64,000 nucleotides of DNA from a virus (IMGVR_UViG_3300009661_000001:637-64636); one strand, 5' to 3'. Shown: positions 45,223 to 63,807, counted from the stretch's first letter. The notes: generated by a model not told the origin, from the letters alone. Made by a program: numbers and translations.

Positions 45223-45432
45223 TTAACCGTGAACTTTCTCTTTCAGGTCGCGCAGTTCCTCACGACGGTCTTCCAGTTGCTTACGCTCCTGGCTTGCGTC
45301 TTCCTTGTTTTCTTCCATATCGGCGACATCTTCCTCCAGGTTCATGATTTCTTTCTGGAGGTCAAGGATACGCTGCTTGTCACCGTTATCGTCCTCGAAT
45401 GCCCGCAACCGGGCAGCTGCTTCGATTTTCAT
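45223..45432 (-). CDS. MKIEA-tagged 69-aa coiled-coil protein
   Basis: Likely start ATG 45432 (MKIEAAARLRA), overlapping the upstream stop. Confidence 0.75.
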   Translation of the reverse strand: MKIEAAARLRAFEDDNGDKQRILDLQKEIMNLEEDVADMEENKEDASQERKQLEDRREELRDLKEKVHG

Positions 45433-45887
45433 AGCTTGACTAAGCCTTCCATGATGGGTAGCAGTTTCTTTGCAGATTCCATGTAGGCTTCCGCAACGTT
45501 CATACAATCCTTCAGGTCCTTCAAACCGTATTTGGCTTCACGTTTGATTTCGGCGACCACGTCTTTAGTAGCACGCATTTTCTTGGAGCTACTGTCCGTA
45601 TCAATCGAAAGGAAATTGCTTTGCAGTTCGACGCCGCTATCAACCGTTACGTTGACCGACACACTCAGGTAAGGTTCATCGGCCTCATCATCAGGTTCAG
45701 ACAGAGTGATTGTTACCTCGACTTCCACATCTTTACCCAATTTGGGTTTGAACTCGACGATTTCATCACCCCAGTTGTTCTTGGCCTTCTTGGTATAAGG
45801 ACCCAAGACCGCCTCAAATTTCTGTAACAGCGCACCCGCGCTGTCGGGACCAGCCGCCATAAGTCTTTTCTTGGCTTCGATTTTCAT
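45429..45887 (-). CDS. MKIEA-tagged acidic protein
   Basis: ATG 45887 after a GAGG RBS (MKIEAKKRLMA). Confidence 0.75.
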   Translation of the reverse strand: MKIEAKKRLMAAGPDSAGALLQKFEAVLGPYTKKAKNNWGDEIVEFKPKLGKDVEVEVTITLSEPDDEADEPYLSVSVNVTVDSGVELQSNFLSIDTDSSSKKMRATKDVVAEIKREAKYGLKDLKDCMNVAEAYMESAKKLLPIMEGLVKL

Positions 45888-45889
45888 GG

Positions 45890-46636
45890 TTACCTCGTAA
45901 GTATGTGGTCGCTCAAGGCCGTTGACCAAGCTGGGCTTTCGACCAGTGAGGTCTCAATACCTTGGATACCATGACTGTTTCGGAACGCAATCGAATCAGG
46001 TCCCTTGAAGTTCTTGACCACGCGCCAATCAATATCATTGCGTGGATCAAGATGCTGGCAGTATGAGTTCTCGGTCATTGGCTCACCGCAGCAGGAGCAG
46101 GTGAAGTTGTCAACCAGTGCACCCATCGAGTAGGTATTGATGTCACCATCCATGACGCGCTGCGCCATTTTCGGGTACTTCTTTTTATCGATACCCAGTA
46201 GACCCATAACCTTCCACAGCTTACCTTGTCCGTAGTCACTGACCTTATGCAGCGATGTATCGAAGATGATGCCATAGGCCGCAGTGTGGTCTTCGTTGGC
46301 GTGTTCGTAGTGAACAGGGCAACCAGTCCAGGTCTTGTAAGCCATACGGGCGTTTGGCGGCTCCTGAAATCTGGTCAACTCGTTGAGCGGGAACCCGATA
46401 CCGTTTCGATTCGGGATATCGGAAGGGCAAATAGGCGTCACAACCAGTATGTAATCCTCGATGTTCGGAGAGGTGTGGTACAGCTTTGCAGCGTACGGTA
46501 ACCAGGTCAGAGCATCGAGATTTACCAGCTCAGGATCGGTGTTCACGTCGGTAACGCGCTCTGATACTTGAGCTGCCGTTATGACGTTGGGTTTTTGCTC
46601 GGAGAAGTGACGTTCGCCAGAATGGAGTTCAAACAT
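45890..46636 (-). CDS. Prohead (maturation) protease, assemblin/HK97-type fold
   Basis: NRNG..F...EL, PVHYEH, YSMG...CSCCG, ETSLVESPAW motifs; position in the head operon. Confidence 0.7.
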   Translation of the reverse strand: MFELHSGERHFSEQKPNVITAAQVSERVTDVNTDPELVNLDALTWLPYAAKLYHTSPNIEDYILVVTPICPSDIPNRNGIGFPLNELTRFQEPPNARMAYKTWTGCPVHYEHANEDHTAAYGIIFDTSLHKVSDYGQGKLWKVMGLLGIDKKKYPKMAQRVMDGDINTYSMGALVDNFTCSCCGEPMTENSYCQHLDPRNDIDWRVVKNFKGPDSIAFRNSHGIQGIETSLVESPAWSTALSDHILTR

Positions 46637-47025
46637 TATCGCACCCCCATGTAAGCTTCACCAGCTGCCGACCACGTTATCTTGCAGCAGGTAAACAGTA
46701 CGTCAGCTTTGGTGATTTCTCCGGCAGGCACTGAGAGCGAATTACCCCACAGTACTGAACCCTGCACATTTGGGTCTGGGTCCATCGCCATACCCGGGTT
46801 AGAGAGGGTGAACTCAACAGTAATGGGTACAGAAGATTGGAAGAAGATACCAAAGTGCAGATCGTTAAAAATCAGTGCTGACAGTTGAACGATTTTGACA
46901 TCCCCGGATGCATCAGCACCCCAACCGCTCCAGCCGATACCAACAGGAACGTTGGCAGAGCCGATACCGCTGGGGCTATGACCGAGGTAACCTTTAGCAC
47001 GATTACCTACAGATTTAACTGCCAT
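46636..47025 (-). CDS. Hypothetical head-cluster protein
   Basis: Operon position; 129 aa. Confidence 0.65.
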   Translation of the reverse strand: MAVKSVGNRAKGYLGHSPSGIGSANVPVGIGWSGWGADASGDVKIVQLSALIFNDLHFGIFFQSSVPITVEFTLSNPGMAMDPDPNVQGSVLWGNSLSVPAGEITKADVLFTCCKITWSAAGEAYMGVR

Positions 47026-47027
47026 GA

Positions 47028-47453: not shown

Positions 47454-47491
47454 TTTCAGGTTCCTTTCAACGAAAATATTAAATTGTAGCC

Positions 47492-47527
47492 AAAGAAAAA
47501 GCGACTAGCTTTATGGGCTAGTCGCTT
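47492..47527 (-). terminator. Intrinsic terminator after the SNF2 gene
   Basis: 11-bp stem AAGCGACTAGC / GCTAGTCGCTT followed by a T-tract. Confidence 0.85.
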
Positions 47528-47532
47528 GTGAA

Positions 47533-50500
47533 TTACTTCATATCTTGGTCGTTACGAATCTTGATTTTCTTCAGCTTCTTGAAGTGGGCACTGAGGTCTT
47601 TAACGTTGGAGATACCAATACCAGCTGCCTGTATCTCTTTAATTTTTTGACCTGTGTGCGCCAAATCGAGGCCGTAGTAGACCATCGATTCAGCACCCTT
47701 TGACCACTTCACTCCCGGGACCGCAACTTTCATCGCACGCAGGGCAGCTGGTTGGCCGCGAGTATGCATGACGATAAATGCCTTGCCATCTTCGATCATT
47801 GGGTATGGCTTGATTTCGTTCTTCGCAGTGGATGGCTTAGATTCCAGACGGAAGAAGTTTGTCAGTTGATTCTTGTTGGCAAAATTGAAGGTCTCCTTAC
47901 CGCTGCTGAGGCCACCGGATTTAATCAGTGCCGCCATATCCCATACTGCGCGGGCTACGTGCATCTTGCGGTACGTTTCATCCAGAGTAAAACCTTTTGC
48001 TTCCCACGCAGCAAAAAGTCTCCACAAAGCGGCAGAGGATTTGAACTGAGCCAAAGCGAATTGAGGAACAGGGCGGAAACCCAATGCCTGCAATGCCGAT
48101 TTAGCCTTGTCATCTTCCACAAAGTACGTGATGCCGAGGAAGCCATTACTGACGTTGAATTCCAGTTCGACATCGATACCGGTTTCGACTACCGTAGGTG
48201 TATGCTGTTTCTGCATACGTTCTTTTTCCGCCTTGCGCTCTGCTGCTTTGTTAAGGCGGAACGACGGACCGAGAATACCAGTAGGAGGTTGAACCTTCAG
48301 CTTGTCATGTTCAACAAGGCGACCTTTCTTGTCCTTCTTCTGACCAACTTGATCCATGATGGCATCGCGCATCTGCTTACCTGAGGTGTTCTTCTTGGTA
48401 ATGATGTAGGATGCCGCCATATGAACACGAACCAGATAGCCATTGTCGAGGGCGACGTTGAGTTTCTTCGCATGAAGCATGACGGTTTTGATTACGCCAT
48501 CGCCAAACTCCGTGTGGACGGCCTGACCTTGCAGCGCAACAGCAGCCTGTTTCTTGAGCTTCTGTTTCTCGGTGAGAGCGCCCTCTTCTGTTTCTTCGTC
48601 TTCCGATTCGTCCTCTGCACCGGCATTGTTCTGTGTATCCATGTGAAGGAATTCATCCACACGAACCAAACCGAGTTCACCGCTGTTGAAGATTTCCAAG
48701 CCAGGCACATACGGAACCTCTGCCATTATCATCGCGTCTTTTGGATTCGGTGCAATGACCAAAGGATCGAGTTTCAGTTCACCGTGTTTTGCGCGGTACT
48801 CAGCGTAGTCGTCGGATTTGACCTGATTGTAGACCTTGTATGCGTGAGCATACGTCGTCAGGTTTTCATTCCAGTCATTCATCGCCATAATCGAATCAAC
48901 GTTCATAGCAATGACCTTGACGTCTGGCACAGTTTCGTAGGCGACGCTTTCGGTGTTCTCGAATTTGGCGACTGCGATGACCTTGGATATCAGACGGCTG
49001 ACCTTGGTGATGTCCAACGTGTGGTTGGCAACAATCCAATCATAGTAGATTTTATCCCGACGTTCTGCCTTCTTCAGTTCAGGACGATTGACACGCGAGT
49101 TACCTTGTTCCAGTGTACCTGGGTTCCAAACCGTTTCCGTACGAATCAAGCGGCTGACGTGCTGGAAGTTAAGACCCGTATTCATGGAATTCTCAACACC
49201 AACCATCCAGCGCATTTTATCGTCTTGCTCAAATGCCCGACCCGCCTCGATTTTATCCGCTGCCTTGTAGAGGATACCCATTGCTCGCATATCGTCGTCG
49301 AAGGCTTCGTAAATTTCTTCGGCAGATTCGGTGTAGTTCGTAAAGATCAACACCTTGCCTTCGATACCCTGCTCGATGTGCTTTTTGGTGATGTTGATAA
49401 TCATGTTCACCTTAGGCGAACGACGATCCACACCTTGCAGCAGTTTGTCACCTAACGGATCGCGTGCGGGTGCAGTAATGTACTGCTCCAACCGTGCCAA
49501 GTAGAAGCCCAGCAATGCCTCCAAATCGGCACCTGCATCTTCATCGGCGATATCCTCTTCTTCATTGCCTTCCGCGTCGTCCTCGGTGTCCTCATGCAAC
49601 TCCTGCTTGGCATTCTTGAAGAACTTCTGCAACGTTTTGTTGGTCTTTGCGTCCTCGCGCATTTTGTCCAAGGCTTCGGTCAAAATAGCTTCGTAGACAC
49701 GTTGCTGGTTCTCTGTAAGAACAACACCGTGGAACAGTTCCTCCGCTTGAGGAAGCAACGCCGCCCATTCCTTACGCATCGCCTTCGCCACAACAACACG
49801 CGATTTGATGGCCTTCATGATGTCGTACTGCGCCTTGGGTTTCCACTCGATGACCCGATCACCCTTAACATTGGAGCCGTAGCGATTGTTGAATTCGCTC
49901 TTGGAACCGAACAACGTTGGATCTAGCATCGCAATCTGAATGGCCAGGTCAGACGGGGAATCGTGAGCCATCGTACCGGAGGCCAAACGTTTTTTCGGTA
50001 TGTCGGCAATCAGCGCCATACATGCGCGGGTACGCTGCGAATCGTTTTTGACGAAATGGCTTTCGTCCAACAATGCATATTGGAAGTTAAACTGGCGCAG
50101 GAACTCGATCAGCGGATACACAGTAACCGAGGTCGTACCGTAGCAAACCTGACGTTGTTTCTGGCGCAGCACATCGTAGTCAACAATGACCACAGTATTA
50201 CGCGGTGCATTGCTAATCATTTTCGACAGACGCTCGTAGCCATTACGGAAGGTCACGTAGGTATTGATTGGTATAGCGTTGATTTTACCACCGGTGAAGA
50301 ACGTAAGTTCTTTAACGTACTGCGGCACCAGGTGGGACGGGCAAATGATCAGGTACGGATTACTACGATTGGCTTTTATTTCGTAGCAGATGTCGGTAAT
50401 TGCCAGCGGAGTTTTACCACCACCTGCCTGCACTGGCAGGATAGCAAACGACGGGCTATCTTTCAGCAGATTGCGTACCTTCTTTTGGTGGGGCAGAAGA

Positions 50501-52119
50501 CCTATCGGACGGTCAGGGTCATCCTTAATCATCGGTATCGAAGGGGGTTCCCAACCTGGGGTAACTTCCTGATTGGTTGCCGCAGCGTTAGCAGCAGCTG
50601 CCTCGAGGTGCGTCTCAGCATCACCTGCGTACTTCAAGAGAGTCAGCAGGCCCAGTATGCTACTGGCGCCGCTTACCGAATACTTCAGGTTAACTGCATC
50701 CATGTTGGCAAGCATTGCTGCGCGTACCTGACCGGCGAATCGAGCTATTGGGCGGAAGATTTCAGGACCCTCTACCGAAATGTCGTCAAGTAGCAGTTCG
50801 TCGCCAAGATGCTGGGTGAAGAAGCTGAGTGCCATGTGCCAGTAGTCTTCCAGGTCCATAGGCTTGTTCAGCTTATTGGCGATGATACTATCGACGTGTT
50901 CAACTGCCTCCAACTCGTCTGCCTTGAGGCGTATGACAGGTGCCAATCCCATCGCCACACCTACGTTGGAAATCTGTTGAACCTGTTTGAGGCTTAGCGT
51001 CAGACGTTTCAGGAGGTTGTGAATGTGCGCTGGTTCAGCTGCCTTGAAGCGACTCAGGTTCTGCACCTTCAGGATACCGTTGGTTTGCGTATAGGCATAT
51101 TTGTAGTTTACCCAGTCTATCAGGACTGGAATATTGGGCGGCAATTTGTTCTTTGGCGCCTCATTGAGGTCTATCATCGTAGCTGCCTCGTTCATCTTGA
51201 GCAACGAGAACGAGCCGTCACCATTGTCGCCGGCCTGCGTGAACAAATCCTCGTAGCGAGAGGTGTTGTCCAACTTCTCTGGCAACCACAACGCGATACC
51301 AGTAGGATCGATGGATAGCCCATCTTTGTTGACACGGGCTTGACCTTCTACAACGCGTGGCAGCGTCTTGGCAATCTTGGAAACTGGAAAGGAAGCGAGT
51401 GGTGTATCAGTGGAGTAGCCGTACTGACCCGTCACCCATTGTAGCAACAGCGGGTACAGATCGATGTTGCGAATCATCATCCATTCAGTGGTCGTCAACT
51501 GTTGGGCGATTGGCTTGTTGATCTTAAAGTCGGCAACGAAGATTGCGAAGCCGCCTTTGTAAAGCAGACGTATGGATACCAGGCAATCTTGAAGTTCGAC
51601 AGCCATTTTGGCATCGATGCCAATCATCTTGGAAATTGCTTGCTGGCCGGTAAAAACATGAGCAGACAATTGATCGGCCGCCGGCTGCTTACCTTGCTGG
51701 AGAGTGTTCGTCAATTCGTTGATCGAACCCGTAGCCATATCGTGTTTTTTGCCATCCGTGAACCACTGAATGAAACGATTGGCGGTCAAGCTTACGTCAC
51801 CACGCTTCATCGTGTACAAAGGGATGGTGGCCAGGAAATGCGGATCGTCCGCGTCGTTGACCTTTTTAAGCGTGAGGTAGCCGGCGAGACCTTGCTTGGC
51901 CATATATTCCGACCACGCACGTATGCCCTTACGATTCTTGCCGAAGCTCGGGTCTTTCACAATCTCTGGGAAGAAGAGACTGAGCCACATGCGGTTAATG
52001 AACACAGGTTCCAAGCCTGTGTAGCCTTTGTTGTAGACGGCCAAGAACGATTTCTTCAACTCTTTACGGTCAAGTTGGAGATTCGGTGGCACTATGAGGT
52101 TGGTTGTGGCACGCAGCAT
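47533..52119 (-). CDS. Large SNF2-family ATPase/helicase (1528 aa)
   Basis: LLPHQ, AGGGKT, LLDESH, SGT, KVLIFT, WNPGTLEQG..RV.R motifs; long uncharacterised N- and C-terminal extensions. Confidence 0.85.
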   Translation of the reverse strand: MLRATTNLIVPPNLQLDRKELKKSFLAVYNKGYTGLEPVFINRMWLSLFFPEIVKDPSFGKNRKGIRAWSEYMAKQGLAGYLTLKKVNDADDPHFLATIPLYTMKRGDVSLTANRFIQWFTDGKKHDMATGSINELTNTLQQGKQPAADQLSAHVFTGQQAISKMIGIDAKMAVELQDCLVSIRLLYKGGFAIFVADFKINKPIAQQLTTTEWMMIRNIDLYPLLLQWVTGQYGYSTDTPLASFPVSKIAKTLPRVVEGQARVNKDGLSIDPTGIALWLPEKLDNTSRYEDLFTQAGDNGDGSFSLLKMNEAATMIDLNEAPKNKLPPNIPVLIDWVNYKYAYTQTNGILKVQNLSRFKAAEPAHIHNLLKRLTLSLKQVQQISNVGVAMGLAPVIRLKADELEAVEHVDSIIANKLNKPMDLEDYWHMALSFFTQHLGDELLLDDISVEGPEIFRPIARFAGQVRAAMLANMDAVNLKYSVSGASSILGLLTLLKYAGDAETHLEAAAANAAATNQEVTPGWEPPSIPMIKDDPDRPIGLLPHQKKVRNLLKDSPSFAILPVQAGGGKTPLAITDICYEIKANRSNPYLIICPSHLVPQYVKELTFFTGGKINAIPINTYVTFRNGYERLSKMISNAPRNTVVIVDYDVLRQKQRQVCYGTTSVTVYPLIEFLRQFNFQYALLDESHFVKNDSQRTRACMALIADIPKKRLASGTMAHDSPSDLAIQIAMLDPTLFGSKSEFNNRYGSNVKGDRVIEWKPKAQYDIMKAIKSRVVVAKAMRKEWAALLPQAEELFHGVVLTENQQRVYEAILTEALDKMREDAKTNKTLQKFFKNAKQELHEDTEDDAEGNEEEDIADEDAGADLEALLGFYLARLEQYITAPARDPLGDKLLQGVDRRSPKVNMIINITKKHIEQGIEGKVLIFTNYTESAEEIYEAFDDDMRAMGILYKAADKIEAGRAFEQDDKMRWMVGVENSMNTGLNFQHVSRLIRTETVWNPGTLEQGNSRVNRPELKKAERRDKIYYDWIVANHTLDITKVSRLISKVIAVAKFENTESVAYETVPDVKVIAMNVDSIMAMNDWNENLTTYAHAYKVYNQVKSDDYAEYRAKHGELKLDPLVIAPNPKDAMIMAEVPYVPGLEIFNSGELGLVRVDEFLHMDTQNNAGAEDESEDEETEEGALTEKQKLKKQAAVALQGQAVHTEFGDGVIKTVMLHAKKLNVALDNGYLVRVHMAASYIITKKNTSGKQMRDAIMDQVGQKKDKKGRLVEHDKLKVQPPTGILGPSFRLNKAAERKAEKERMQKQHTPTVVETGIDVELEFNVSNGFLGITYFVEDDKAKSALQALGFRPVPQFALAQFKSSAALWRLFAAWEAKGFTLDETYRKMHVARAVWDMAALIKSGGLSSGKETFNFANKNQLTNFFRLESKPSTAKNEIKPYPMIEDGKAFIVMHTRGQPAALRAMKVAVPGVKWSKGAESMVYYGLDLAHTGQKIKEIQAAGIGISNVKDLSAHFKKLKKIKIRNDQDMK

Positions 52120-52925: not shown

Positions 52926-53362
52926 GTTGGGCTCCGGAACGACGGTACACCGTCATCCGTCAGCACGTCTTGCGAATCAGGCGTGGTAACGCCTACACCG
53001 ATATCATGCACATCGGCACCGTCGTCGTTGGTTTCTTGTTGCGAACCCAAGTCGTCACCGGTCGGATCGCCGTCCGTGAGTGCCACGTCTTCCAGCGGAA
53101 TGGCATCCTCATCAATATTTGGATCGTAAAGTACATCCTCATCGGCGGCTTCAATCTTGGTTGCCATTGCCTCCGTTGGATCGGTCAGCACGTCGTCATC
53201 ATCACCGTCGACGACTTCGCCTAGAAGCTCATAAATGTGGGCTTCCAAGGCTTCCTTGTCCATGCCCAATGCACCAGCTAGGGCGTGTACCTGAGCATCG
53301 GCGGGTTTCGGATTCAATTGCAGAAAGATGGTAATTAGTTCGGTCAGTTTCTCGTTCATCAT
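52922..53362 (-). CDS. Very acidic hypothetical protein with internal KIEAA
   Basis: GGAG RBS; Asp-rich; contains MATKIEAADED. Confidence 0.7.
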   Translation of the reverse strand: MMNEKLTELITIFLQLNPKPADAQVHALAGALGMDKEALEAHIYELLGEVVDGDDDDVLTDPTEAMATKIEAADEDVLYDPNIDEDAIPLEDVALTDGDPTGDDLGSQQETNDDGADVHDIGVGVTTPDSQDVLTDDGVPSFRSPT

Positions 53363-53850
53363 TTGCTCCTATAGGATTGCAGGTATTTAATTATCTTTGT
53401 CGACCACTTGTCGTACTCAAGCGATGATATGCCGTCTAATTCTTTTATGGCAGCCTCGTGTGCGTTACCACCAAGTTGGACGTCCTTTTCTGCCATTACA
53501 AAAGGGCTTGCATCAGGGTATTTCTTACGTGCAGCAGCGATGGTCAGCTTAGCCTCGACGTATTCATGCTGCATTACGTGTACCAGCTCCCACTCTAGTC
53601 CGGCTTTCAAGCAAGCATTATAGAAAGAGGTTTGAAAAAGTATGGTTATATGACCAGTAAAATCTACGGTCCAACTGGCTTCCCAATCACCATTAGTACC
53701 CTTCAATTTTTCCATTAACTCTAAGCTGGTACGCGGAAATGGTGTGGTCTTATTCTTGATATGAGGTAGGTATGAAGGAACCTGCGCCACTGACCTGTCG
53801 TACCATGGTGGCGTCAAGGCGGTCAAGCGTTTCACGGCCTCTATCTTCAT
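53359..53850 (-). CDS. MKIEA-tagged protein with an HExxE...AH motif
   Basis: MKIEAVKRLTA; MQHEYVE...AHEAA suggests a metal-binding site. Confidence 0.65.
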   Translation of the reverse strand: MKIEAVKRLTALTPPWYDRSVAQVPSYLPHIKNKTTPFPRTSLELMEKLKGTNGDWEASWTVDFTGHITILFQTSFYNACLKAGLEWELVHVMQHEYVEAKLTIAAARKKYPDASPFVMAEKDVQLGGNAHEAAIKELDGISSLEYDKWSTKIIKYLQSYRSK

Positions 53851-54182
53851 CATTTGCACCCATGGTAAGTCTTTAAATGGTTATTGCCTGGGTGCCGTTG
53901 CTCATGGCAGTTATCGCACACCGACATCAAATTCTTTTTTGTAGTTGTACCGCCTTTGGAAAGGGGAAGTATGTGGTGACAGTCGGTAGCCTTTACAAGC
54001 TTGCCCTTACGCCGGCACGGGACGCAAAACCCCCCGTCACGCTTGAAAACCTCCTTACGAATATCCCACCAACTGTTGGTCTTAGTAAATCCTGAGACTG
54101 TCGCATAGCCACTGCGCTTGATTTTGGTGACCCCACTTTTGCTCGAAGTCCGTACTGAGGCAAATCTTTTTATCAGTCCCAT
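53850..54182 (-). CDS. HNH endonuclease
   Basis: RDGGFCVPC...DCHHILPLSKGG...NLMSVCDNCHEQRH. Confidence 0.9.
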   Translation of the reverse strand: MGLIKRFASVRTSSKSGVTKIKRSGYATVSGFTKTNSWWDIRKEVFKRDGGFCVPCRRKGKLVKATDCHHILPLSKGGTTTKKNLMSVCDNCHEQRHPGNNHLKTYHGCK

Positions 54183-55384
54183 GCGTATCCCTTGCGTTCG
54201 GCTTTATCCCAGCGCGCTTCTTTCTTTTTTTGGTAGTAACTGCGTATAGAAATTGCTGCCAGCCGAACATTATCACCTAGGCCAACCGGTATCCCGTGTA
54301 TGGTTGGTCCCTCTTGCTTCCGTAACTCATAGAACGATGAATCGGAAACTATCATAAAGTTGAAAGACTGGCCCGGTATGAATTTCTTGGCATCGGTAAA
54401 CGACACAAACGCCCAACCCTTCTTACCGAACGCTTTACAAGCCACCATACCGTCAACGAGTTTGCCTCCCCACACAACCGTAGCCAGTAGTGAATCGTGC
54501 GGCTGCACACGAACTAGCTTGTGTTCTTCAACCTGCTCCAAAGCCTGCTTATGTTTATTGATACGTGATTCGTATTCAATCTTTTCTTCTTCGGTCATGT
54601 AAGTGGACCGTTCGTTCGGATCATAGCGCCTAGGGTTCAGGCCAACTTTCTTCATCCATGCCTGCCAATTATGGCCGTGACCTCCCTCAGAGTGATCGGT
54701 AACCTTATCGATTTCGGACACTGCTTGATGGCACATTTCATGCAGCAGGACCTCAACAAAAAACGCAAACGTGTGATTCAACAAACGAGGACTCAACGCC
54801 AACTCGCGGTAGAACCCGTCCCAGAAACCGCGTGTCTTGAGGCTGGTTCCCCTAACGTTCTTCATAAACCGCAGGAGCTTAGGTATGTGCATTTTGCCTT
54901 GGAACTTATGGACATTAAGGTATATCCACAGGTCCTTCAAGAAGGTCAATGACAATTCAGGAAAAACCTGGCAGCGTTTAAACAGCGCCTCCAGCTTTGG
55001 ATCGACAGATATATGTGGTACATTGTTATCGTCATTCTCGGTACCTGTTCGTGGATCATGTGGCGGTTCGATTGGTTTTTCAACCGGTGCCTTTACTTCA
55101 GGTACCTCAGGTTTAGAACCTTTCTTCGTGTTCTTGAGCAACACAGTTTTGGTTGTGGGCCAAATAGCGACCACCCCACTCTTGTTGTACGCATACCGGA
55201 TACTCTTTTCTACACTCTTCGGCTCACCCAGCATAACCTTGACGCGGGCCTTGTCGTAATCCGAATAGTAGAACTTGATGATGTTGTCGCCCTCATGCTT
55301 GAAGCGGAGGCCGTGGAAGCCAAGCTCCAGGAGGAAGGCCTGTGCTTGGTTCCGGTCTGCCATTACGGCAAGAATCGGAGTCAT
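54173..55384 (-). CDS. SprT-like zinc metalloprotease with an N-terminal domain shared with 55993..56301
   Basis: VLLHEMCH (HExxH) and GHGHNWQAWM..VG SprT motifs. Confidence 0.85.
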   Translation of the reverse strand: MTPILAVMADRNQAQAFLLELGFHGLRFKHEGDNIIKFYYSDYDKARVKVMLGEPKSVEKSIRYAYNKSGVVAIWPTTKTVLLKNTKKGSKPEVPEVKAPVEKPIEPPHDPRTGTENDDNNVPHISVDPKLEALFKRCQVFPELSLTFLKDLWIYLNVHKFQGKMHIPKLLRFMKNVRGTSLKTRGFWDGFYRELALSPRLLNHTFAFFVEVLLHEMCHQAVSEIDKVTDHSEGGHGHNWQAWMKKVGLNPRRYDPNERSTYMTEEEKIEYESRINKHKQALEQVEEHKLVRVQPHDSLLATVVWGGKLVDGMVACKAFGKKGWAFVSFTDAKKFIPGQSFNFMIVSDSSFYELRKQEGPTIHGIPVGLGDNVRLAAISIRSYYQKKKEARWDKAERKGYAWD

Positions 55385-55944
55385 CGGAAACCTTTCTGTA
55401 TGAACGCATCGGGATCAACTCCTTTGGCAAGCAGGATGAGGCGCACACCGTCGACTTCAGCCAGACCTAATGCGTTCTCACCACTTGACTTGAGCATCGT
55501 AACCTTGTCGTTGACTGCAAGCAGGTCATATTGCTTGCTCAATGCCTTCCACACCTGTGCGGAGGCTGCACTCTGTACGTCGTGGCTAAGGATACTCATT
55601 TTGTTATCTAACACCCATTTGTACAGAGCCTTAGCGAAGCCCATTCCTCGGTAAGGCTTGAGGAAGAAAGAGCTTGGTACAAATAGACGCCCGAATGGAA
55701 AATCGCGAGGCACAATGGACAAGAGGCCCACCGGTTCATCGTTGTGGACCAAATAGATGTCGAAGATGATTCCCTGCTTATTTACTTGGATGCGAAAACC
55801 CGGAGTATTGGTTGGCACATTCTTGATAGAACCCTCACCAAGGTGAAATTCATCTAGAGCGGCTTGACCTTGTTTATCGGAGAACGCAACGTCAGACGGT
55901 ACTATGTGTACTGATTGCAGGCGAGTAAGGGCTTCGATTTTCAT
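55381..55944 (-). CDS. MKIEA-tagged GNAT-fold protein
   Basis: YRGMGFAKALY acetyl-CoA-binding motif A; S..QS..S..VW..L. Confidence 0.7.
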   Translation of the reverse strand: MKIEALTRLQSVHIVPSDVAFSDKQGQAALDEFHLGEGSIKNVPTNTPGFRIQVNKQGIIFDIYLVHNDEPVGLLSIVPRDFPFGRLFVPSSFFLKPYRGMGFAKALYKWVLDNKMSILSHDVQSAASAQVWKALSKQYDLLAVNDKVTMLKSSGENALGLAEVDGVRLILLAKGVDPDAFIQKGFR

Positions 55945-55992: not shown

Positions 55993-56301
55993 TTACTGAC
56001 CGCGTTTGCTATTTTTGAAGATCACTTCCTTACGATTAGGCCACACTGCGAGGACACCAGCGCCCGGGACGTTGTAGCGGATCGATTCGGACTTGGTCGT
56101 TTCTTTCGGCGCGCCCAGTTTCTTGTTCAGCATCTTCTCGTTGTATTTCTCGTACTTGAAGGTCAAGATGTCCTCGTCGCTTTTCTTCAGCGTGACACCG
56201 GTGAAGCCGACCTCGGTCAGGTACTTGATGGCTTTTTTCTCCGAGCCTTCTGCTGCCAGGATTTCGGATTTTGCGATACGTGCGGCTGCTTCGATTTTCA
56301 T
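55993..56301 (-). CDS. MKIEA-tagged small basic protein
   Basis: AAGGA RBS; MKIEAAARIAK; homologous to the SprT protein N-terminus. Confidence 0.8.
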   Translation of the reverse strand: MKIEAAARIAKSEILAAEGSEKKAIKYLTEVGFTGVTLKKSDEDILTFKYEKYNEKMLNKKLGAPKETTKSESIRYNVPGAGVLAVWPNRKEVIFKNSKRGQ

Positions 56302-56735: not shown

Positions 56736-57356
56736 CTATTTAGGCCAAATAAATCGGAACAATGGTTTTGGTCCTGCGGTGAGATTGATATCGCCTTGTG
56801 GGTGTTTGTAAATCAGATCGTCACCTCGTTGTTCAATCTCGTTACGTTTGGTCTTGATGTTACCACTGACCTCTATGTAAATCTTTGGTGTGGATTTGTA
56901 GAGACTCAGCCACGTATAATAACTGAACGTTCCAAGGTCATCCGAACTTTCGATACCATTCTTACTGTATTGGTGGACCGTTACGTATAAGGCTTTTCCG
57001 TACCCTTGCCCACGAACTGTAGGATTCGTCCAGATGGATTCCACCACATCTCTTGGATTTTGTTTCAAAGCCTTTATGAATCCCAGGATTTGTGCTACAC
57101 CAGCACTGTGAAGGGAATCTAGCTCACCATCGAGCTTTAACTCTGACCCTTTAACCAGACATTCGGCAACAACAAAAGTGCGTTTCCACGTTTGATTGTA
57201 CATTAGCAGAACGCCAGTACCATGATGATTCAGAACCTTAAACGCGGAGGCGTCAGTATCATGCAGTAGGTCACGTGCAACTTCAGGGCCGCGCCCAAAG
57301 TTGTCGCCCTCCGTTATCGCCATTGCGGTTAGCCTGCTTAGGGCCTCTATCTTCAT
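56736..57356 (-). CDS. MKIEA-tagged GNAT-fold protein
   Basis: VRGQGYGKALY; close paralog of 57748..58383. Confidence 0.75.
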   Translation of the reverse strand: MKIEALSRLTAMAITEGDNFGRGPEVARDLLHDTDASAFKVLNHHGTGVLLMYNQTWKRTFVVAECLVKGSELKLDGELDSLHSAGVAQILGFIKALKQNPRDVVESIWTNPTVRGQGYGKALYVTVHQYSKNGIESSDDLGTFSYYTWLSLYKSTPKIYIEVSGNIKTKRNEIEQRGDDLIYKHPQGDINLTAGPKPLFRFIWPK

Positions 57357-57738: not shown

Positions 57739-57747
57739 ACTCGTTCC

Positions 57748-58383
57748 TTATTTTGGCCAAATAAAATAGAAAGTTGGCGTCCCGCGTGCGGTTAATTCAA
57801 CCAACTTATCACCATAGTCGTACAAAATATCTAACCCGTTTACGGTTATCTTTTTCCTGTCAAGCGCACCTTGATACCACTTTGGTACATTAAGCTTTAT
57901 TTCAGGATGAGCCTTGAACAACGATATCCATAGACCTAAACTCATAGTACCGAGTGAGTCAGAACTACGAATACCCTTTTTAGACATTTCATAGGCGACC
58001 TTGTAAAGTGCCTTCCCATATCCCTTGCCTCGGTAATTTTTGTGCACCCATACCGCAGATGTTTCCTCCCTTACACCAAGAATGAGAGCATCATGCGATA
58101 CTGCCATATAGGCTATGGCTGAATCGAACCCACTCTTTGCTATGGTTTTATTTTCCTTTAGGGCTGCCGAGAAATCTGATAGTGGTACCTTAATAGTTAC
58201 CAAAAGAAGCGTACCCGTTTTCGGTGAGTGTAACAAGACCTGGTTCTCGTGCGAATTTAGGACCTTAAATTGAGAACCCTCGCGTGTGGAAACGAGCCAC
58301 GCTACATCGTCTGCTGCCCCTGAAAAATTATCACCTTGCGTTATGGTCATACCTTTAAGTCTCGCGGCGGCTTCTATAATCAT
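57748..58383 (-). CDS. Tagged (MIIEAAARL) GNAT-fold protein
   Basis: YRGKGYGKALY; SS..LGT.S..W.SL; ends FIWPK like 56736..57356. Confidence 0.75.
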   Translation of the reverse strand: MIIEAAARLKGMTITQGDNFSGAADDVAWLVSTREGSQFKVLNSHENQVLLHSPKTGTLLLVTIKVPLSDFSAALKENKTIAKSGFDSAIAYMAVSHDALILGVREETSAVWVHKNYRGKGYGKALYKVAYEMSKKGIRSSDSLGTMSLGLWISLFKAHPEIKLNVPKWYQGALDRKKITVNGLDILYDYGDKLVELTARGTPTFYFIWPK

Positions 58384-58386
58384 AAG

Positions 58387-59436
58387 TCACCCATATTGTT
58401 TGATATACTTGAGGATGTCGTTGATGACCTTCAACTGGTTTTCTTCATTAAGGTTTTCTTCATTAATGGCACCAATGGTGACCACGGGTTTCTTGCCATG
58501 ATCGTAGTCGTAGAATTCAAATACCGTTTTCTCTGCACCGTAGCGACCGCTGCCACTCCAGCCCATAAGCTCCATAATACGTGGCTCGCCTTCTTCGTCT
58601 TTTGGTGGGTATTTGACGAACTTCGTTTCGTAGTAGGCTTTATTCTGGATAGTCTTTGCTTGGTAACCTTGCAAGGTCATCAGGTGTACGATGTCTTTGA
58701 CACCCTTCTCTGCGACCTGAGACAACTGAGTTGAGCGAGCCATCAGCTTCTGTTCGGCTGCGGTCAACGCAAGTTTATCAAATGCTTTTAGGCGGGATGC
58801 TGCCTCGATCTTGAATGCTCTAACCATGCGTTCTGGCAGAGGTCGTGCGAAGGCCGTGGCTTTCTTGGCAGCTGTAAATGCTTGCGCCCGTGTGAAAGTG
58901 TGGCCGTTCTCGCAGCTACTCGTGGCCTTAGTGTCGTCTGGTGTACGGGCTGTGGAAGTAATACGACCACTACAGGTTGGGCATGGTGTTTCGTAAATAC
59001 TGGTCATTGCTTGAACTCCCGTTGGTTTGTCTTGTGGTGATTTCTTGTAGAGCTTGCGTAATTCTTCTTTGGCTTTATGGAGCCGATCTTTATCAGGGCT
59101 CATTAGTTTCTTGCCAGCGCGATTTACATAGAAGCTTATGGCCCCCATCGCTGCCTTAAAATCGTCCTTATACCTATTCTTCAAGGTCCTAGCTAATTCA
59201 CCAGGTTGCATCTTGAAGGTAGTGTCATCAGGGTTACCGGATAATGGCGGTTTCTCCTGATTCTTAATCTTGGTCTTACGTTCGACCTTCTCCGACCAAT
59301 CACGGTCATACGCTTTAATGCGTGCGGCGGCTTCGATGGCATCCTTCATGGAAAACTCGTGGTTGTTGTAGCACTGGGCTATTGAGCCACTGTAGGTCGC
59401 AGCAGGAGGTGAGCCACATATTGGACATACCTTCAT
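58387..59436 (-). CDS. Multi-module protein: zinc ribbon - tag - DUF3175-like - zinc ribbon - tag - unknown
   Basis: CPIC...C.N.H.F and CPTC...C.N.H.F; internal IEAAARIKA and KIEAASRLKA; AMGAISFYVNRAG. Confidence 0.7.
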   Translation of the reverse strand: MKVCPICGSPPAATYSGSIAQCYNNHEFSMKDAIEAAARIKAYDRDWSEKVERKTKIKNQEKPPLSGNPDDTTFKMQPGELARTLKNRYKDDFKAAMGAISFYVNRAGKKLMSPDKDRLHKAKEELRKLYKKSPQDKPTGVQAMTSIYETPCPTCSGRITSTARTPDDTKATSSCENGHTFTRAQAFTAAKKATAFARPLPERMVRAFKIEAASRLKAFDKLALTAAEQKLMARSTQLSQVAEKGVKDIVHLMTLQGYQAKTIQNKAYYETKFVKYPPKDEEGEPRIMELMGWSGSGRYGAEKTVFEFYDYDHGKKPVVTIGAINEENLNEENQLKVINDILKYIKQYG

Positions 59437-59448
59437 CGTCTACTCCTT

Positions 59449-60255
59449 TTAAGCCGTCGAGAACTTCATCTTGGTCTTCAGATGAGAAAGCCCTTGTTTG
59501 ACAGTTGGGTTGGAGGGCGCGTGTTTGAATGCCGTATAGCATAGGGCAATCATCAGGTTATACGGTATTGAGACTGCGAGCCAAGAAGGACTTGGCCACG
59601 GTGTAGCCAAGCCTGCTACCACCAGACTGATTGCCAATAATCCTTGCGGCGAGGTGAACAGTTCAGCCGCAGACCAATGACCATGCAGCGCTGCTTTAAT
59701 GAGGGCTGCAAAGTCCATATCAAGGTCTGGGTGTGCTGTAAAGTTGCCGGCTAAAAACGCCCAGATCAGCAGGCCAGCTACGGCGGGACCAGCGAGGCGT
59801 CGCAGAATTGGGTACTCTTCCAAAAACTCATCAAGCTTTAATGCACCGGAATGCAGCTTTTGGAAAGCTCGGGTTTCATGAAGCTTAGAGAACAAGGTCA
59901 GTATGCCTTCTTTGTACAAGGTCGCAAAAGCCTTGATCGGTTTGACCAAAGAGGCCACCGTGAACTTAATTGCCTTAAGTAGCGCAAACATTGGGCGTGT
60001 CTTGAAGGCCTCAACGATAGCGCTAATTTCTAGGCCCGTTTCCTTGGCGACCTCACTTACCATCGATTTAATGTGTTGAAAGAAATCGTTGATTTGATCG
60101 ACACCAGTTTTGATCGATTTCCAGATGTCAAGTGCATGTACTTTGTTTGGCTCATTGATATTGTCGAGCAGTGCCGTCCAGTGTGCATACTGGATTTGAG
60201 AGGCTAAAGTTCGGTGACGTGATGCCAACAGTCGGGCGTGTGCTTCGATCTTCAT
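59449..60255 (-). CDS. MKIEA-tagged protein with hydrophobic C-terminal helices
   Basis: MKIEAHARLLA; LAGPAVAGLLIWAFLAG and GLLAISLVVAGLA segments. Confidence 0.7.
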   Translation of the reverse strand: MKIEAHARLLASRHRTLASQIQYAHWTALLDNINEPNKVHALDIWKSIKTGVDQINDFFQHIKSMVSEVAKETGLEISAIVEAFKTRPMFALLKAIKFTVASLVKPIKAFATLYKEGILTLFSKLHETRAFQKLHSGALKLDEFLEEYPILRRLAGPAVAGLLIWAFLAGNFTAHPDLDMDFAALIKAALHGHWSAAELFTSPQGLLAISLVVAGLATPWPSPSWLAVSIPYNLMIALCYTAFKHAPSNPTVKQGLSHLKTKMKFSTA

Positions 60256-60263
60256 GTGTGGTC

Positions 60264-60881
60264 CTAGGAAGAGAACGGGTCCGTTATAATTGGGTCTTCA
60301 CCGCGCATCATTATATTTTTACTGTGCAAATCAAGGCGGATTTTTCCGCCGACGGTTTTAACAATAAACTTAGCGACTAGCGCAATATCTCGATCTTTCT
60401 TTTGTTTGGCCAGGTCTTCCCATACCTCTGTTATGTTAAGTCCCATATTCACGTACTCCGGTGAATTTAGTTCTTTTATTTCGTCTGACCGACCAGCCGT
60501 TAGAAATAAATAAGTCCCAAACTGCATGTAGTCCCTTCGTTTCATGGGAGTCAATTTCTCCATAAAAACCAAACGCAGGTCTCTGAATTCTGTTTCGTCT
60601 CCATCAAAGGCTTTATCGGCTTCTACTACCTGGAGTATCTTGGGCATATACTTATTAGCGTTCTTTTGGCTAAACTTAATATATGCTTCATATCCAAGAT
60701 CAGTACCAGTCAAAATTTTAACCACTACATTAGGCATGGTAGGATGCTGAAATACATTTGCATAAAGGCCACTACCTACCTGCTTGAGACCCAGCTTCTT
60801 AAGGCGGTCTATGTATTCGTACAAGCGTTCGGCTATCATCATTTTTGTCGCAACCAATCGCTGCGCTGCCTCGATCTTCAT
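60264..60881 (-). CDS. MKIEA-tagged protein-kinase-like enzyme
   Basis: Gly-loop VGSGLYANVF, VVKI lysine, catalytic DLHSKN, metal-binding ITDP. Confidence 0.8.
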   Translation of the reverse strand: MKIEAAQRLVATKMMIAERLYEYIDRLKKLGLKQVGSGLYANVFQHPTMPNVVVKILTGTDLGYEAYIKFSQKNANKYMPKILQVVEADKAFDGDETEFRDLRLVFMEKLTPMKRRDYMQFGTYLFLTAGRSDEIKELNSPEYVNMGLNITEVWEDLAKQKKDRDIALVAKFIVKTVGGKIRLDLHSKNIMMRGEDPIITDPFSS

Positions 60882-60899
60882 TTAAGGCTCCTTATATGT
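60868..60899 (-). repeat. 32-nt direct repeat, copy A (RBS + tag start)
   Basis: ACATATAAGGAGCCTTAAATGAAGATCGAGGC; 31/32 identical to 62150..62181. Confidence 0.9.
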
Positions 60900-61001
60900 T
60901 GGGTACCAGTGCAGAATCTTAACCCTAGATTTAGGCGGCATCAACATGGTTACTTCATCCTCCTCGGGAAGATGGGAGTATATTGCTGCCTCGATTTTCA
61001 T
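60882..61001 (-). CDS. 39-aa MKIEA-initiated mini-ORF (possible remnant)
   Basis: MKIEAAIYSHLPEEDEVTMLMPPKSRVKILHWYPTYKEP*; fills the gap between two genes exactly; below the track cutoff. Confidence 0.55.
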   Translation of the reverse strand: MKIEAAIYSHLPEEDEVTMLMPPKSRVKILHWYPTYKEP

Positions 61002-61002
61002 A

Positions 61003-61509
61003 CTATACCTTCGTCAATTGGTTAGAGCTGAACAAACCATAGGTTTCTATATTGTTGTTTTGGCCCTCATACGCCTTTATCGCGTCGAACCCGGCTGCCT
61101 TAAGAACCTGAATAAGTTGAGGTAATTCCATATACCACTCCCACACTTCTTTGTGACCACTGTATGCCGCGGAAAGACGGCGTAATTCTTCGACCAATTT
61201 ACGACCAAGTACATCGCTTATATGATGTTGCTTAAATTGACCTAGTACGCCATCCCGTATTCTAGAACAAACTTCATTGAGTTTAACCTGTGTCGTCAGC
61301 GTCCTGAACCCAAATTCAAACGGGTGTACTACATTCACATGAAATGCGTAAACATGGTCCGCATCCTTTGCATACTCCAAGGCGTAGTTATGATCTGACG
61401 TTACAAATATCAAATGTTGATTTCTAGCATGATCCTCTTTCCAGGTTTCGTTTAAACCTCGGTAGAAAACCTGTGAAGCTTTCAATCTTGTTGCCGCTTC
61501 GATTTTCAT
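61003..61509 (-). CDS. MKIEA-tagged ADP-ribosyltransferase-like protein (ART-PolyVal-like)
   Basis: FYRG first strand, FVTSD...A.EYA, H.N..HPF and GFDAI...E.Y..F...Q tail. Confidence 0.65.
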   Translation of the reverse strand: MKIEAATRLKASQVFYRGLNETWKEDHARNQHLIFVTSDHNYALEYAKDADHVYAFHVNVVHPFEFGFRTLTTQVKLNEVCSRIRDGVLGQFKQHHISDVLGRKLVEELRRLSAAYSGHKEVWEWYMELPQLIQVLKAAGFDAIKAYEGQNNNIETYGLFSSNQLTKV

Positions 61510-61898: not shown

Positions 61899-61899
61899 A

Positions 61900-62163
61900 T
61901 TATTCCCCGTAAAGCTTTCGTAATTCGTCTTTGGCCTTCTCCAGGTTCTCTTTATTTTCGACCTTGTCGCCACCGCGGTTGATGTAGAAATTTAAAGCCG
62001 ACATAGCGGACTTCAGGTCAGAGTGAAGCTTCTTTAAGCCTTTGGCGATGGCGGCCCCACTTTTCTTGAACAACCCTTCTGGTGGATGGTTCTCTACCTT
62101 TTCGGTAACGGGTTGACTCCATTTGTCGGCTTTCAGTAACCGTGCTGTGGCCTCGATCTTCAT
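61900..62163 (-). CDS. MKIEA-tagged DUF3175-like protein
   Basis: KWS..VT...SAMSALNFYINRGG...LEKAKDELRKLYG. Confidence 0.7.
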   Translation of the reverse strand: MKIEATARLLKADKWSQPVTEKVENHPPEGLFKKSGAAIAKGLKKLHSDLKSAMSALNFYINRGGDKVENKENLEKAKDELRKLYGE

Positions 62164-62181
62164 TCAAGGCTCCTTATATGT
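62150..62181 (-). repeat. 32-nt direct repeat, copy B (RBS + tag start)
   Basis: ACATATAAGGAGCCTTGAATGAAGATCGAGGC. Confidence 0.9.
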
Positions 62182-62479
62182 CGTAGACTTCAAGGGTTCC
62201 ACCGTCGTCCGGCGGATCATTTAACACGATACCGATTTCGTCATTCCATTTATCCCACACGTACAGCTTGGTATCTCCTTTGCGACCAGTCTTAGGCTGA
62301 CCCAATTTCTTGGTCAAAATCTTGAGGACCTCTGTGGCCGAGGTGTACAATTCGTAGGTTGCGCTACCAGATACTATGTGTACCAGGTCGGCATCGATAC
62401 CCATATTGCTGAGTAACTTTTCGGTCATACCCCAATTGGTATCAGCCGCCTTAAGTCGTTGGACTGCCTCGATCTTCAT
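62174..62479 (-). CDS. MKIEA-tagged hypothetical protein
   Basis: MKIEAVQRLKA; GGAGG RBS. Confidence 0.75.
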   Translation of the reverse strand: MKIEAVQRLKAADTNWGMTEKLLSNMGIDADLVHIVSGSATYELYTSATEVLKILTKKLGQPKTGRKGDTKLYVWDKWNDEIGIVLNDPPDDGGTLEVYDI

Positions 62480-63261
62480 TTGAAGCCTCCTATGAAGGAT
62501 TGGACAGCCATTCCACCTGCATTAAATAAACGCTGACGAGTAGCCTTATTCATGTTGCGATCAAGTGAGGAAGCGTAACCTGTTTCAACAAAGGCCACCT
62601 GTGCACCTTCCAGCGATGCGATATCGATGTGGGCTGCCTCAGAGGCATTCATCATTAGGTTGAGCATATGCATGGGACGATTGAGTAATGTCAGTGGTGA
62701 TGTGTCATTCGCCACCAGCTGAATACCGATGCGGGGTCGCGCGCGGGTCAGCCGGTCAATCGGTATGTTGTTGCTCAGGCCACCGTCAACCATTTGTATG
62801 CCGTCGTAGTTGAAAGGCTCGTAAACGAACGGTATAGAAGTCGACGCCCGTACTGCATCGGCGATCAAAGCATGTGGTGTAGCGTAACGGCTAAACTCAA
62901 ATGGTTTTTCTGCCTTTACGTCGGACGCTATTACTGTCAGATCATGGTCCAGTTCGATAAACGTTTTTTCTTCCGTCATTTGAAGCAACCACTCATGCAG
63001 ATTATTGCCGTTGCACCAACTAATACCTGGCCAGGACGATGGTGTAGGCGTCAACATCGACGACCAATCGTTATTCATCGTCAATTCGACCAGCGAATCG
63101 ATATCGTGACCGCATGCGTATAAGGCTGCTACAATAGAGCCTCCACTGGTACCAGCTACTTCCTCAGGTATCAAACCTGCTTTGAGTAAAGCAGATAAAG
63201 CACCTACGTGAGCCGGGAATTTAAAACCACTGCCACTAAAGGCCGTATTGATTGCAGTCAT
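62476..63261 (-). CDS. Patatin-like phospholipase
   Basis: FSGSG oxyanion loop, GTSGG nucleophile elbow, DGG catalytic Asp. Confidence 0.9.
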   Translation of the reverse strand: MTAINTAFSGSGFKFPAHVGALSALLKAGLIPEEVAGTSGGSIVAALYACGHDIDSLVELTMNNDWSSMLTPTPSSWPGISWCNGNNLHEWLLQMTEEKTFIELDHDLTVIASDVKAEKPFEFSRYATPHALIADAVRASTSIPFVYEPFNYDGIQMVDGGLSNNIPIDRLTRARPRIGIQLVANDTSPLTLLNRPMHMLNLMMNASEAAHIDIASLEGAQVAFVETGYASSLDRNMNKATRQRLFNAGGMAVQSFIGGFK

Positions 63262-63264
63262 ATG

Positions 63265-63807
63265 TCACCTATTTTCGATTAGCAGTAGGACCTCAGGGTC
63301 GGTCCATTTGGCGCCTGGTGAAGTTTCATAGGCTCCACCTTTAACCTGGCGTATGGTCTTCACGTTGTACTGAGTACCAAGGCGTTTCCAAAGGTTGTGG
63401 CTCATACGTGACTGCCTGCTATCTGATATGAGATTAAACACGGTTATGGCCCACTCGTACATACCCAGCATTACACCTCGCCCACGCATATCTGGTATTA
63501 AGTAAGAGGACGCTGTTCCAACTTGAAGGGTTTTGTCATCAAGCCATATACGCTTTGGTGTAATGTGCAGACTTCCGACCGCCGTACTGTCGCGGAAACA
63601 TATGAGGTTGATTCCTTTGTGGATGCCGGTTTTGCAGTCATAGACCCGAAAGTGAATACCATTTCTTTGTCCGAGTGTTTTAAAGGCATCCGGTTTTTCC
63701 GCAAAGACCTCTGTCATATCACCAAGTACACTGCGCCCCATGCTGTCGCTGTAGCCTTCTTTTACGATTCTCACTGACCTCAACCTTAACGCAGCTTCGA
63801 GTCTCAT
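63265..63807 (-). CDS. Tagged (MRLEAALRL) GNAT-fold protein
   Basis: MRGRGVMLGMY; SDSRQS..S..LW..L; resembles 55381..55944. Confidence 0.65.
   Translation of the reverse strand: MRLEAALRLRSVRIVKEGYSDSMGRSVLGDMTEVFAEKPDAFKTLGQRNGIHFRVYDCKTGIHKGINLICFRDSTAVGSLHITPKRIWLDDKTLQVGTASSYLIPDMRGRGVMLGMYEWAITVFNLISDSRQSRMSHNLWKRLGTQYNVKTIRQVKGGAYETSPGAKWTDPEVLLLIENR

Follow-up and report, generated by a model that had tools for sequence, protein, structure and literature searches.

Why do proteins of such different kinds, encoded among the head genes of one virus, begin with the same short peptide? The question is raised by a stretch of 64,000 nucleotides (IMGVR_UViG_3300009661_000001:637-64636; the whole stretch that was analysed, referred to here as the window), in which a series of minus-strand open reading frames (ORFs) share an N-terminal peptide tag with the consensus M-K-I-E-A-x-x-R-L-x-A, about 11-12 residues in length. 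The sequence of these genes and the analogy with known packaging systems suggest, with a probability of roughly 45%, that the tag is an address label read by one phage-encoded partner, by which the proteins would be loaded into the capsid.

The strict form of the motif, M[KIR][IL]EA..R[LI], is confirmed for the ORFs that start at 63807, 62479, 62163, 61509, 60881, 60255, 58383, 57356, 56301, 55944, 53850, 45887 and 45432. With a truncated tag at 61001, these 13 ORFs account for all 14 start positions given in an earlier note on this DNA. Two internal copies of the tag, DAIEAAARIKAYD and FKIEAASRLKAFD, are located in the ORF at 58387-59436. In the six-frame translation of the window, the loose form [IL]EA..R[LI] has 15 matches, with 0.4 expected from composition, and this form occurs at most 3 times in residue shuffles (n = 200). 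All 15 matches fall in the 45.4-63.8 kb part of the minus strand. A motif scan of the window found the tag on no plus-strand, tail or replication gene, in agreement with the earlier statement that no plus-strand replication gene carries it. A chance origin of the shared tag is excluded by the excess of matches over expectation, their confinement to a single strand, and a wobble usage like that of gene bodies (see below).

The contig, with a length of 77,724 bp, extends past the window. It contains 20 ORFs that open with the tag, two of them being in-frame second copies within longer ORFs. Six tagged starts lie past the window, at the window-equivalent positions 65619, 72769, 73944, 74493, 74981 and 75368, on both sides of the portal gene, and one further internal copy beyond the window is found inside a 251-residue protein. 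All the tagged ORFs of the contig are on the strand of the structural genes.

The tag Arg uses all six of its codons and the tag Leu uses five, and the wobble positions of the K, I, E and A residues have the same codon usage as gene bodies. The DNA segments upstream of the tagged starts have only a Shine-Dalgarno-like GGAG or GGA in common. Because the Arg and Leu codons and the wobble positions vary and the upstream DNA is unconserved, selection acts on the peptide, and the earlier proposal to this effect is borne out by the free synonymous variation.

Judging by its genes, the source of the contig is an uncultivated jumbo myovirus that is phiRSL1-like (Mieseafarmvirus/Sarumanvirus group), a relative of Ralstonia phage phiRSL1 and Burkholderia phage BcepSaruman. 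Its major head protein is 71-73% identical to those of phiRSL1, BcepSauron, BcepSaruman and BCSR5, and its head protease is 53-56% identical to those of the phiRSL1/Burkholderia jumbo relatives. A megablast search with the island against a phage collection gave no match. The relatives compared here are phiRSL1, BcepSaruman and three uncultivated IMG/VR genomes (G001, G002 and G003).

The two cultivated relatives carry a looser version of the tag on genes of the corresponding region. In phiRSL1 it is present on ORF109 (NUDIX), 111, 120, 123, 124, 127 and 133 (for example MAYDITAAVSRLAGT and MYEIKAAVDRLKATE), with internal copies in ORF112, 117, 125 (twice) and 141; about 100 ORFs scanned in the early region of this phage showed no in-frame copy. 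In BcepSaruman, gp092 (MFAVEAAKRLLATA) and gp077 (MKLEAAARLLATS) are tagged. G001, whose protease is 79% identical to that of the window phage, has MKIEA..RL on 13 genes, in the same dialect as the window phage. The other lineages have dialects of their own: (M-x-F)-K-I-E-A-x-x-R-I on 11 genes of G002, M-[IK]-x-L-N-A-x-x-R-L on 11 genes of G003, I-[ST]-A-A-x-x-R-L in phiRSL1, and MKLEAAARLLAT in BcepSaruman. The residue after the Arg is Ile in 11/11 tags of G002 but in only 2/21 of the window phage (p = 6e-7), and position 4 is Glu in 21/21 tags of the window phage and in 0/11 of G003 (p = 8e-9). The core common to all the lineages is [IL]-x-A-x-x-R-[LI]-x-[AS]. Orthologous genes bear the dialect of their own genome, as is seen for the GNAT-like proteins, a 99-residue protein upstream of the portal, and the DUF3175 proteins, whose orthologues in G001 and G003 have the local form. 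Such concerted, private dialects on unrelated proteins lead us to expect a single reader encoded in the same genome.

Two near-complete relatives, G001 (190 kb) and G002 (192 kb), at 80-82% completeness, were searched with degenerate DNA patterns of the tag, reversed patterns being the control. G001 has 9 strict matches, all in the forward direction and all within 7-33 kb around the head module. G002 has 11 matches, all on the structural strand, with 10 of the 11 at 155-187 kb. The controls gave 0 in both genomes, and the matches are concentrated near the head and tail genes. A search of 2.9 million IMG/VR contigs with an exact-codon pattern gave only 12 stretches, for the most part from further contigs that each carry several tagged genes. 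The claim of the earlier note that the tag is specific to a phage family is supported.

The set of tagged genes varies between close relatives (the window phage and G001), with tags gained, lost, fused and split, and this turnover fits the expectation for cargo in an arms race. The R-L tag was not found in Pseudomonas phage PaBG, a more distant relative for which a virion proteome exists. Several PaBG proteins encoded near the head protease have another recurring start, M-x-[LI]-[LIK]-[IV]-...-(S)AE (for example MQLLIAMASAE, MQIKVAMYSAE and MAAIKINLAE), which may be a separate N-terminal propeptide system ending at an A-x-E-type site.

The gene order of the head module is portal, small genes, HNH endonuclease, small genes, a 1528-residue SNF2 helicase, two small genes, head maturation protease, scaffold-like protein, virion protein, major head protein, sheath and tube, the same as in phiRSL1-like jumbo myoviruses. 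The variable slots of this module, among the portal, SNF2 helicase, protease, scaffold and capsid genes, are occupied by tagged genes. The interval between protease and scaffold holds two of them, encoding a 152-residue protein and a 69-residue acidic coiled coil. The tag is in this way genetically linked to the head module. The head genes used as landmarks in the window are:

47533..52119, minus strand: SNF2-family helicase, 1528 residues, untagged, the counterpart of phiRSL1 ORF129, kept in all relatives.
45890..46636, minus strand: head maturation protease, 248 residues (phrog_18299, E = 1.7e-78).
43827..45179, minus strand: scaffold-like gene, split into ORFs of 137 and 276 residues, aligned with a single 440-residue ORF in G001 (L010:8997-10319).
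41982..43067, minus strand: major head protein, with an N-terminus (...VAASE/YRF) that fits the A-x-E motif of giant-phage head proteases (PMC10052503).

The presence of the SNF2 helicase within the head module of all family members recalls DarB, the packaged helicase/methylase of phage P1. The two scaffold-like ORFs are separated by 108 nucleotides, and an acidic linker is the piece that is absent relative to G001; the split may be a frameshift, an assembly error or real.

The bodies behind the tag, in the 20 tag-opening ORFs of the contig, are of at least eight different kinds. They include four weakly GNAT-like paralogues, DUF3175, a T7 gp0.7-like kinase, an ART-PolyVal-like ADP-ribosyltransferase, NUDIX and a protein with a hydrophobic C-terminus; the rest are without a family. 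The earlier description of the tagged proteins as unrelated stands for the distinct domain types and has to be qualified for the paralogue groups (four GNAT-like and two DUF3175-like). The tagged ORFs of the window, with the neighbours that bear on them, are:

63265..63807, minus strand: MRLEAALRL, 180 residues, weakly GNAT-like.
62174..62479, minus strand: MKIEAVQRL, 101 residues, no family.
61900..62163, minus strand: MKIEATARL, 87 residues, DUF3175 at residues 14-86 (E = 4.9e-13), the tag being outside the domain.
61003..61509, minus strand: MKIEAATRL, 168 residues, ART-PolyVal-like ADP-ribosyltransferase by ESM Atlas features and structure.
60882..61001, minus strand: mini-ORF of 39 residues with the truncated tag MKIEAAIYS.
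60264..60881, minus strand: MKIEAAQRL, 205 residues, T7 gp0.7-like kinase family, matched over residues 22-204 (phrog_15752, E = 2.1e-21).
59449..60255, minus strand: MKIEAHARL, 268 residues, with a C-terminal region that is hydrophobic as judged by eye from the translation; orthologue in G001 (L014:4690).
58387..59436, minus strand: 349-residue ORF, with a zinc ribbon, tag, DUF3175-like domain, zinc ribbon, tag and further domain.
57748..58383, minus strand: MIIEAAARL, 211 residues, GNAT-like.
56736..57356, minus strand: MKIEALSRL, 206 residues, GNAT-like; the G002 orthologue opens with MVFRIEAFQRI.
55993..56301, minus strand: MKIEAAARI, 102 residues, homologous to the N-terminal domain of the adjoining SprT-like protein by direct sequence reading.
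55381..55944, minus strand: MKIEALTRL, 187 residues, GNAT-like.
54173..55384, minus strand: SprT-like metallopeptidase (E = 1.3e-12), 403 residues, with a decayed tag, MTPILAVMADRNQ.
53359..53850, minus strand: (M)MKIEAVKRL, 163 residues, its start overlapping the stop of the HNH gene at 53850-54182.
45429..45887, minus strand: MKIEAKKRL, 152 residues, directly after the protease, in the position of phiRSL1 ORF133 (MYEIKAAVDRLKATE).
45223..45432, minus strand: tagged acidic coiled coil (MKIEAAARLRAFE), 69 residues, directly upstream of the scaffold gene, in the same position in G001 and G002.

In the 349-residue ORF, a Met is located 3-5 residues before each internal tag, and the first internal unit is a separate tagged gene in G001 (L014:2652). 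The tag that has decayed on the SprT-like protein of the window phage is intact (MKLEAAHRL) on the same protein of a metagenomic relative (L018:574). Past the window, a 285-residue ORF (L005:11148-12005, minus strand) opens with MKIEALYRL and has a second tag, MKIEAAARL at residue 130, immediately ahead of a NUDIX domain. The untagged neighbours include a patatin-like lipase, two DUF6527 proteins and the HNH endonuclease, together with the SprT-like metallopeptidase and its decayed tag.

The domain matches always begin after the tag (at residue 14 for DUF3175, at residue 22 for the kinase and for a saccharopine dehydrogenase family match, and right after the second tag for NUDIX), which argues that the tag is an appended module. 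The 168-residue protein, compared with ART-PolyVal (PF18760) clusters, has an ESM Atlas feature score of 0.95 (200/256 features) and a TM value of 0.65; it has no match among the Pfam hidden Markov models and no PDB sequence match. This protein and the kinase resemble effectors that other phages package in their virions, and ART-PolyVal domains are found elsewhere fused to MuF head proteins or inside polyvalent proteins predicted to be packaged (PMC5512222).

The prohead is favoured as the place of the reader by where the tagged genes lie, by the conserved ones beside the portal, protease and scaffold genes, by their confinement to the structural strand, and by the kinds of cargo. In this reading, the N-terminal 11-12 residues would be a docking peptide that can be moved from protein to protein and is probably a short helix rich in Ala. 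The reader would be one phage-encoded partner in virion morphogenesis, most likely a component of the prohead core or scaffold, and the tagged proteins would thereby become enclosed in the capsid. The head protease would clear the scaffold, some of the cargo perhaps also being cut at an A-x-E just past the tag, and the freed cargo would be ejected with the DNA for early action on the host. The candidate activities are those of the kinase, the ADP-ribosyltransferase, the GNAT-like enzymes, NUDIX and the SprT-like peptidase, with a possible membrane activity for the 268-residue protein with the hydrophobic C-terminal region. The identity of the reader, encapsidation, cleavage and ejection are steps that we infer. 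A more elaborate form of this reading, an evolvable cargo-loading code in which an 11-residue helix would load essentially any protein, be it an enzyme, a membrane-active protein or even one of polyamine synthesis, into a T=27 head, the private dialects would be mutually orthogonal and matched to their own readers, the arsenal would be reshuffled gene by gene, and co-infecting phages would not load each other's cargo, is regarded as doubtful.

Predicted structures are of little help here. A predicted complex of the major head protein, both scaffold ORFs and the tagged DUF3175 protein has a score of 0.00 and predicted local distance difference test (pLDDT) values of 42-56, with the chains folded without alignments, and speaks neither for nor against the proposal. 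The AlphaFold2 model of the 206-residue GNAT-like protein (56736..57356), from a 6-sequence alignment, has a mean pLDDT of 51, and its tag, a helix at residues 3-11 followed by coil at a pLDDT of about 30, is unusable as evidence. The tag is not a signal peptide or Tat signal, as it has no hydrophobic core and no twin Arg. The GNAT-like, HNH and SprT-like genes were rejected as the reader, being either missing from some of the tag-bearing genomes or themselves tagged cargo.

Several observations weigh against capsid loading. NUDIX, an atypical virion cargo, is tagged in three lineages (the window phage, phiRSL1 ORF109 with MKINSAFRLL, and G003), and so is, in G001, an equally atypical 479-residue homospermidine-synthase-like enzyme of the saccharopine dehydrogenase family (L014:2962-4401, plus strand; MKIEAAKRL); the homospermidine synthase of phiRSL1 (ORF110) is untagged. 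Tags also occur inside proteins, and the internal copies in phiRSL1 ORF117, ORF125 and ORF141 have no Met nearby. In the relatives, some of the tagged accessory genes are in hot spots of the tail module. The remaining points concern cleavage. An A-x-E is found within 15 residues past the tag in only 15/65 tags family-wide (23%), as compared to 6.6% of background windows, an enrichment of 3.5-fold to which the tag contributes in part through its own conserved Ala. The tags of the window phage are not followed by a cleavage-type site at any fixed distance. The protease of the relatives is annotated as a prohead core protein protease and that of the window phage matches the PHROG head-maturation-protease family, but the latter protease has no Pfam match even at E ≤ 10 and no PDB sequence match, so the gp21-family (Peptidase S77) label comes from PHROG naming only.

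In favour of capsid loading, sites of a more regular kind are present in phiRSL1, where five copies of the tag have R-L-x-[AST]-[ATG]-E (RLKATE, RLASTE, RLAATE, RLTAAE and RLTAGE) and resemble the N-terminus of its capsid protein, VVAATE/Y. A Glu at the fixed position +5 is found in 5 of about 12 phiRSL1 copies, as compared to 2/21 tags of the window phage. Cleavage after Glu4 (KIE/A) is ruled out as a family feature, since the fourth residue is Asn in the G003 tags and, in those of phiRSL1, may be Ala, Asn or Gly. If the scaffold, which is degraded in any case, is the anchor, we infer that cleavage of the tag would be dispensable for freeing the cargo.

The same data have to be weighed for three other explanations. 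The tag could be a docking peptide for a shared phage partner outside the capsid, such as a chaperone, an AAA+ unfoldase, a regulator, or a cytoplasmic hub that serves assembly or metabolism late in infection, which would gather or control accessory enzymes in the infected cell. This is a serious rival, if on the whole somewhat unlikely. The dialects require a genome-encoded reader and are silent on its location, the tagged NUDIX and homospermidine-synthase-like proteins look like intracellular metabolic enzymes, and the tags in tail-module hot spots and inside proteins would be accommodated as well. Moreover, the N-terminus of the T4 capsid protein directs proteins to GroEL (cited in PMC10052503), so N-terminal peptides encoded near head genes can have non-packaging roles. 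On the other hand, no candidate for a non-capsid reader was found, a search for a non-structural gene that accompanies the tag in every genome gave none, and the tags are confined to the structural strand, near head and tail genes, and absent from the early and replication regions. A partner outside the capsid also sits poorly with the conserved tagged genes exactly between protease and scaffold and beside the portal, and with the ART-PolyVal and kinase cargo, which suit injected effectors.

A role mainly as a recognition element of the head protease, in a propeptide or polyprotein junction that holds enzymes inactive or joined, and not in targeting, is improbable. Most tags of the window phage, G001 and G003 lack a Glu at a fixed distance, the conserved I, A, R, L and A differ from the known A-x-E determinants, and folds as diverse as these are unlikely to be inhibited by an N-terminal extension of 11 residues. 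What speaks for this role is the 3.5-fold enrichment of A-x-E past the tags, the likeness of the five phiRSL1 copies to the site in the capsid protein, and the internal copies between domains (the window ORF at 58387-59436 and phiRSL1 ORF112, ORF125 and ORF141). The shared start could, finally, be a nucleic-acid or genetic feature, namely an initiation context, the site of a translational regulator, or a recombination junction spread by gene conversion. AAA or AAG is common as the second codon of well-translated genes, and a near-identical stretch of 32 nucleotides is found at 60868-60899 and 62150-62181. However, the wobble positions vary as in gene bodies, with the six Arg codons coming from two codon families and five codons used for Leu, the upstream DNA is otherwise unrelated, and the peptide is kept in the internal copies and in orthologues at about 60-80% protein identity. 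An explanation at the RNA or DNA level is largely refuted by the codon analysis and is considered very improbable.

The capsid-targeting sequence (CTS) of the phage T4 internal proteins, which is said to be the subject of a 1996 study by Mullaney and Black, is a close parallel to the proposed loading signal in several respects. Both are short N-terminal peptides on otherwise unrelated proteins, with variable cargo sets, an ADP-ribosyltransferase among the cargo, and a head protease nearby. In T4, IPI, IPII, IPIII and the ADP-ribosyltransferase Alt enter the prohead core by an N-terminal CTS of 10-19 residues, which is then removed by gp21; the first 10 residues are sufficient, and related phages bear different CTS-bearing proteins (PMC9026906). 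In contrast, a direct comparison of MKIEAxxRLxA with the T4 CTS (MKTYQEFIAE) finds only the Met-Lys in common. Unlike the CTS, the tag of the window phage has no fixed protease site at its end, occurs in a larger set (about 20 per 78-kb contig), has copies inside proteins and private dialects, and belongs to another phage family.

The phiKZ-type systems are also found in jumbo myoviruses with many internal or ejected head proteins. The head and ejection propeptides of phiKZ, 201phi2-1 and SPN3US are cut after A-x-E by a gp21-like protease (PMC10052503). The N-terminus of the window capsid protein (...AASE/Y) fits the same motif, and the phiRSL1 tags are often followed by A-[ST]-E. However, the phiKZ-type propeptides are mostly 111-254 residues long and have only the cleavage motif in common, whereas the tag is a defined peptide of 11 residues.

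The ART-PolyVal-like protein, the SprT-type metallopeptidase and the SNF2 helicase beside the head genes are reminiscent of the polyvalent and MuF-fused effectors (Iyer et al. 2017, PMC5512222) and of the Dar proteins of P1. For these effectors, delivery along with the DNA is either known or predicted. They are joined covalently in a giant protein or fused to a head protein, whereas the window phage has separate, small tagged genes and is in this sense 'unbundled'. The tag is also similar in kind to the cargo-loading peptides of encapsulins and the encapsulation peptides of microcompartments, which are short, transferable and helix-forming and serve to anchor enzymes of many kinds on a shell or scaffold protein. 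In encapsulins, whose shells have the HK97 fold, the peptide is as a rule C-terminal and binds directly to the shell protein. In comparison, the tag is N-terminal, has no sequence similarity to these peptides, and no shell-binding site has been identified for it.

The tag is not described in the open literature searched, including the papers on Matilda, PaBG, FLC6 and RP12 and a jumbo-phage review. A full-text search for 'MKIEA' gave irrelevant matches only, and the GenBank/RefSeq annotation of phiRSL1 has no virion notes on the tagged ORFs. The tag thus appears to be new to the literature searched; in its putative function it resembles known loading peptides.

If the tag is a loading signal, it marks at once the set of proteins that a jumbo-phage family may inject ahead of gene expression. 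Phages of Ralstonia, Burkholderia and Achromobacter that are under consideration for biocontrol belong to this family, and among the candidates for injection are a kinase, an ADP-ribosyltransferase, acetyltransferase-like proteins, NUDIX and a peptidase. In that case the tag would also offer a natural and very short handle by which foreign proteins could be packaged into large capsids. The private dialects amount to a natural experiment of a rare kind, in which a peptide address and its reader co-evolve, and offer a direct route to the reader. Even with a reader outside the capsid, one peptide organising about 20 accessory proteins would be an undescribed layer of phage cell biology.

Some smaller features of the tagged region are of note. 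The acidic tail of a conserved protein of 146 residues (52922-53362, minus strand; phiRSL1 ORF125 family) contains the tag-like fragment TKIEAADED; in the phiRSL1 orthologue of this protein, two complete copies, ATARLRLTAAE and SAALRLTAGE, are internal. Translational coupling is suggested at 53848-53856, where the double ATG of a tagged gene shares nucleotides with the stop codon of the preceding HNH endonuclease gene (AAATGATGAAG). The near-identical 32-nucleotide stretches consist of a ribosome-binding site and the first tag codons, ACATATAAGGAGCCTT[A/G]AATGAAGATCGAGGC. They precede two different tagged genes and flank a 1.3-kb block, and are a possible recombination junction for cargo cassettes.

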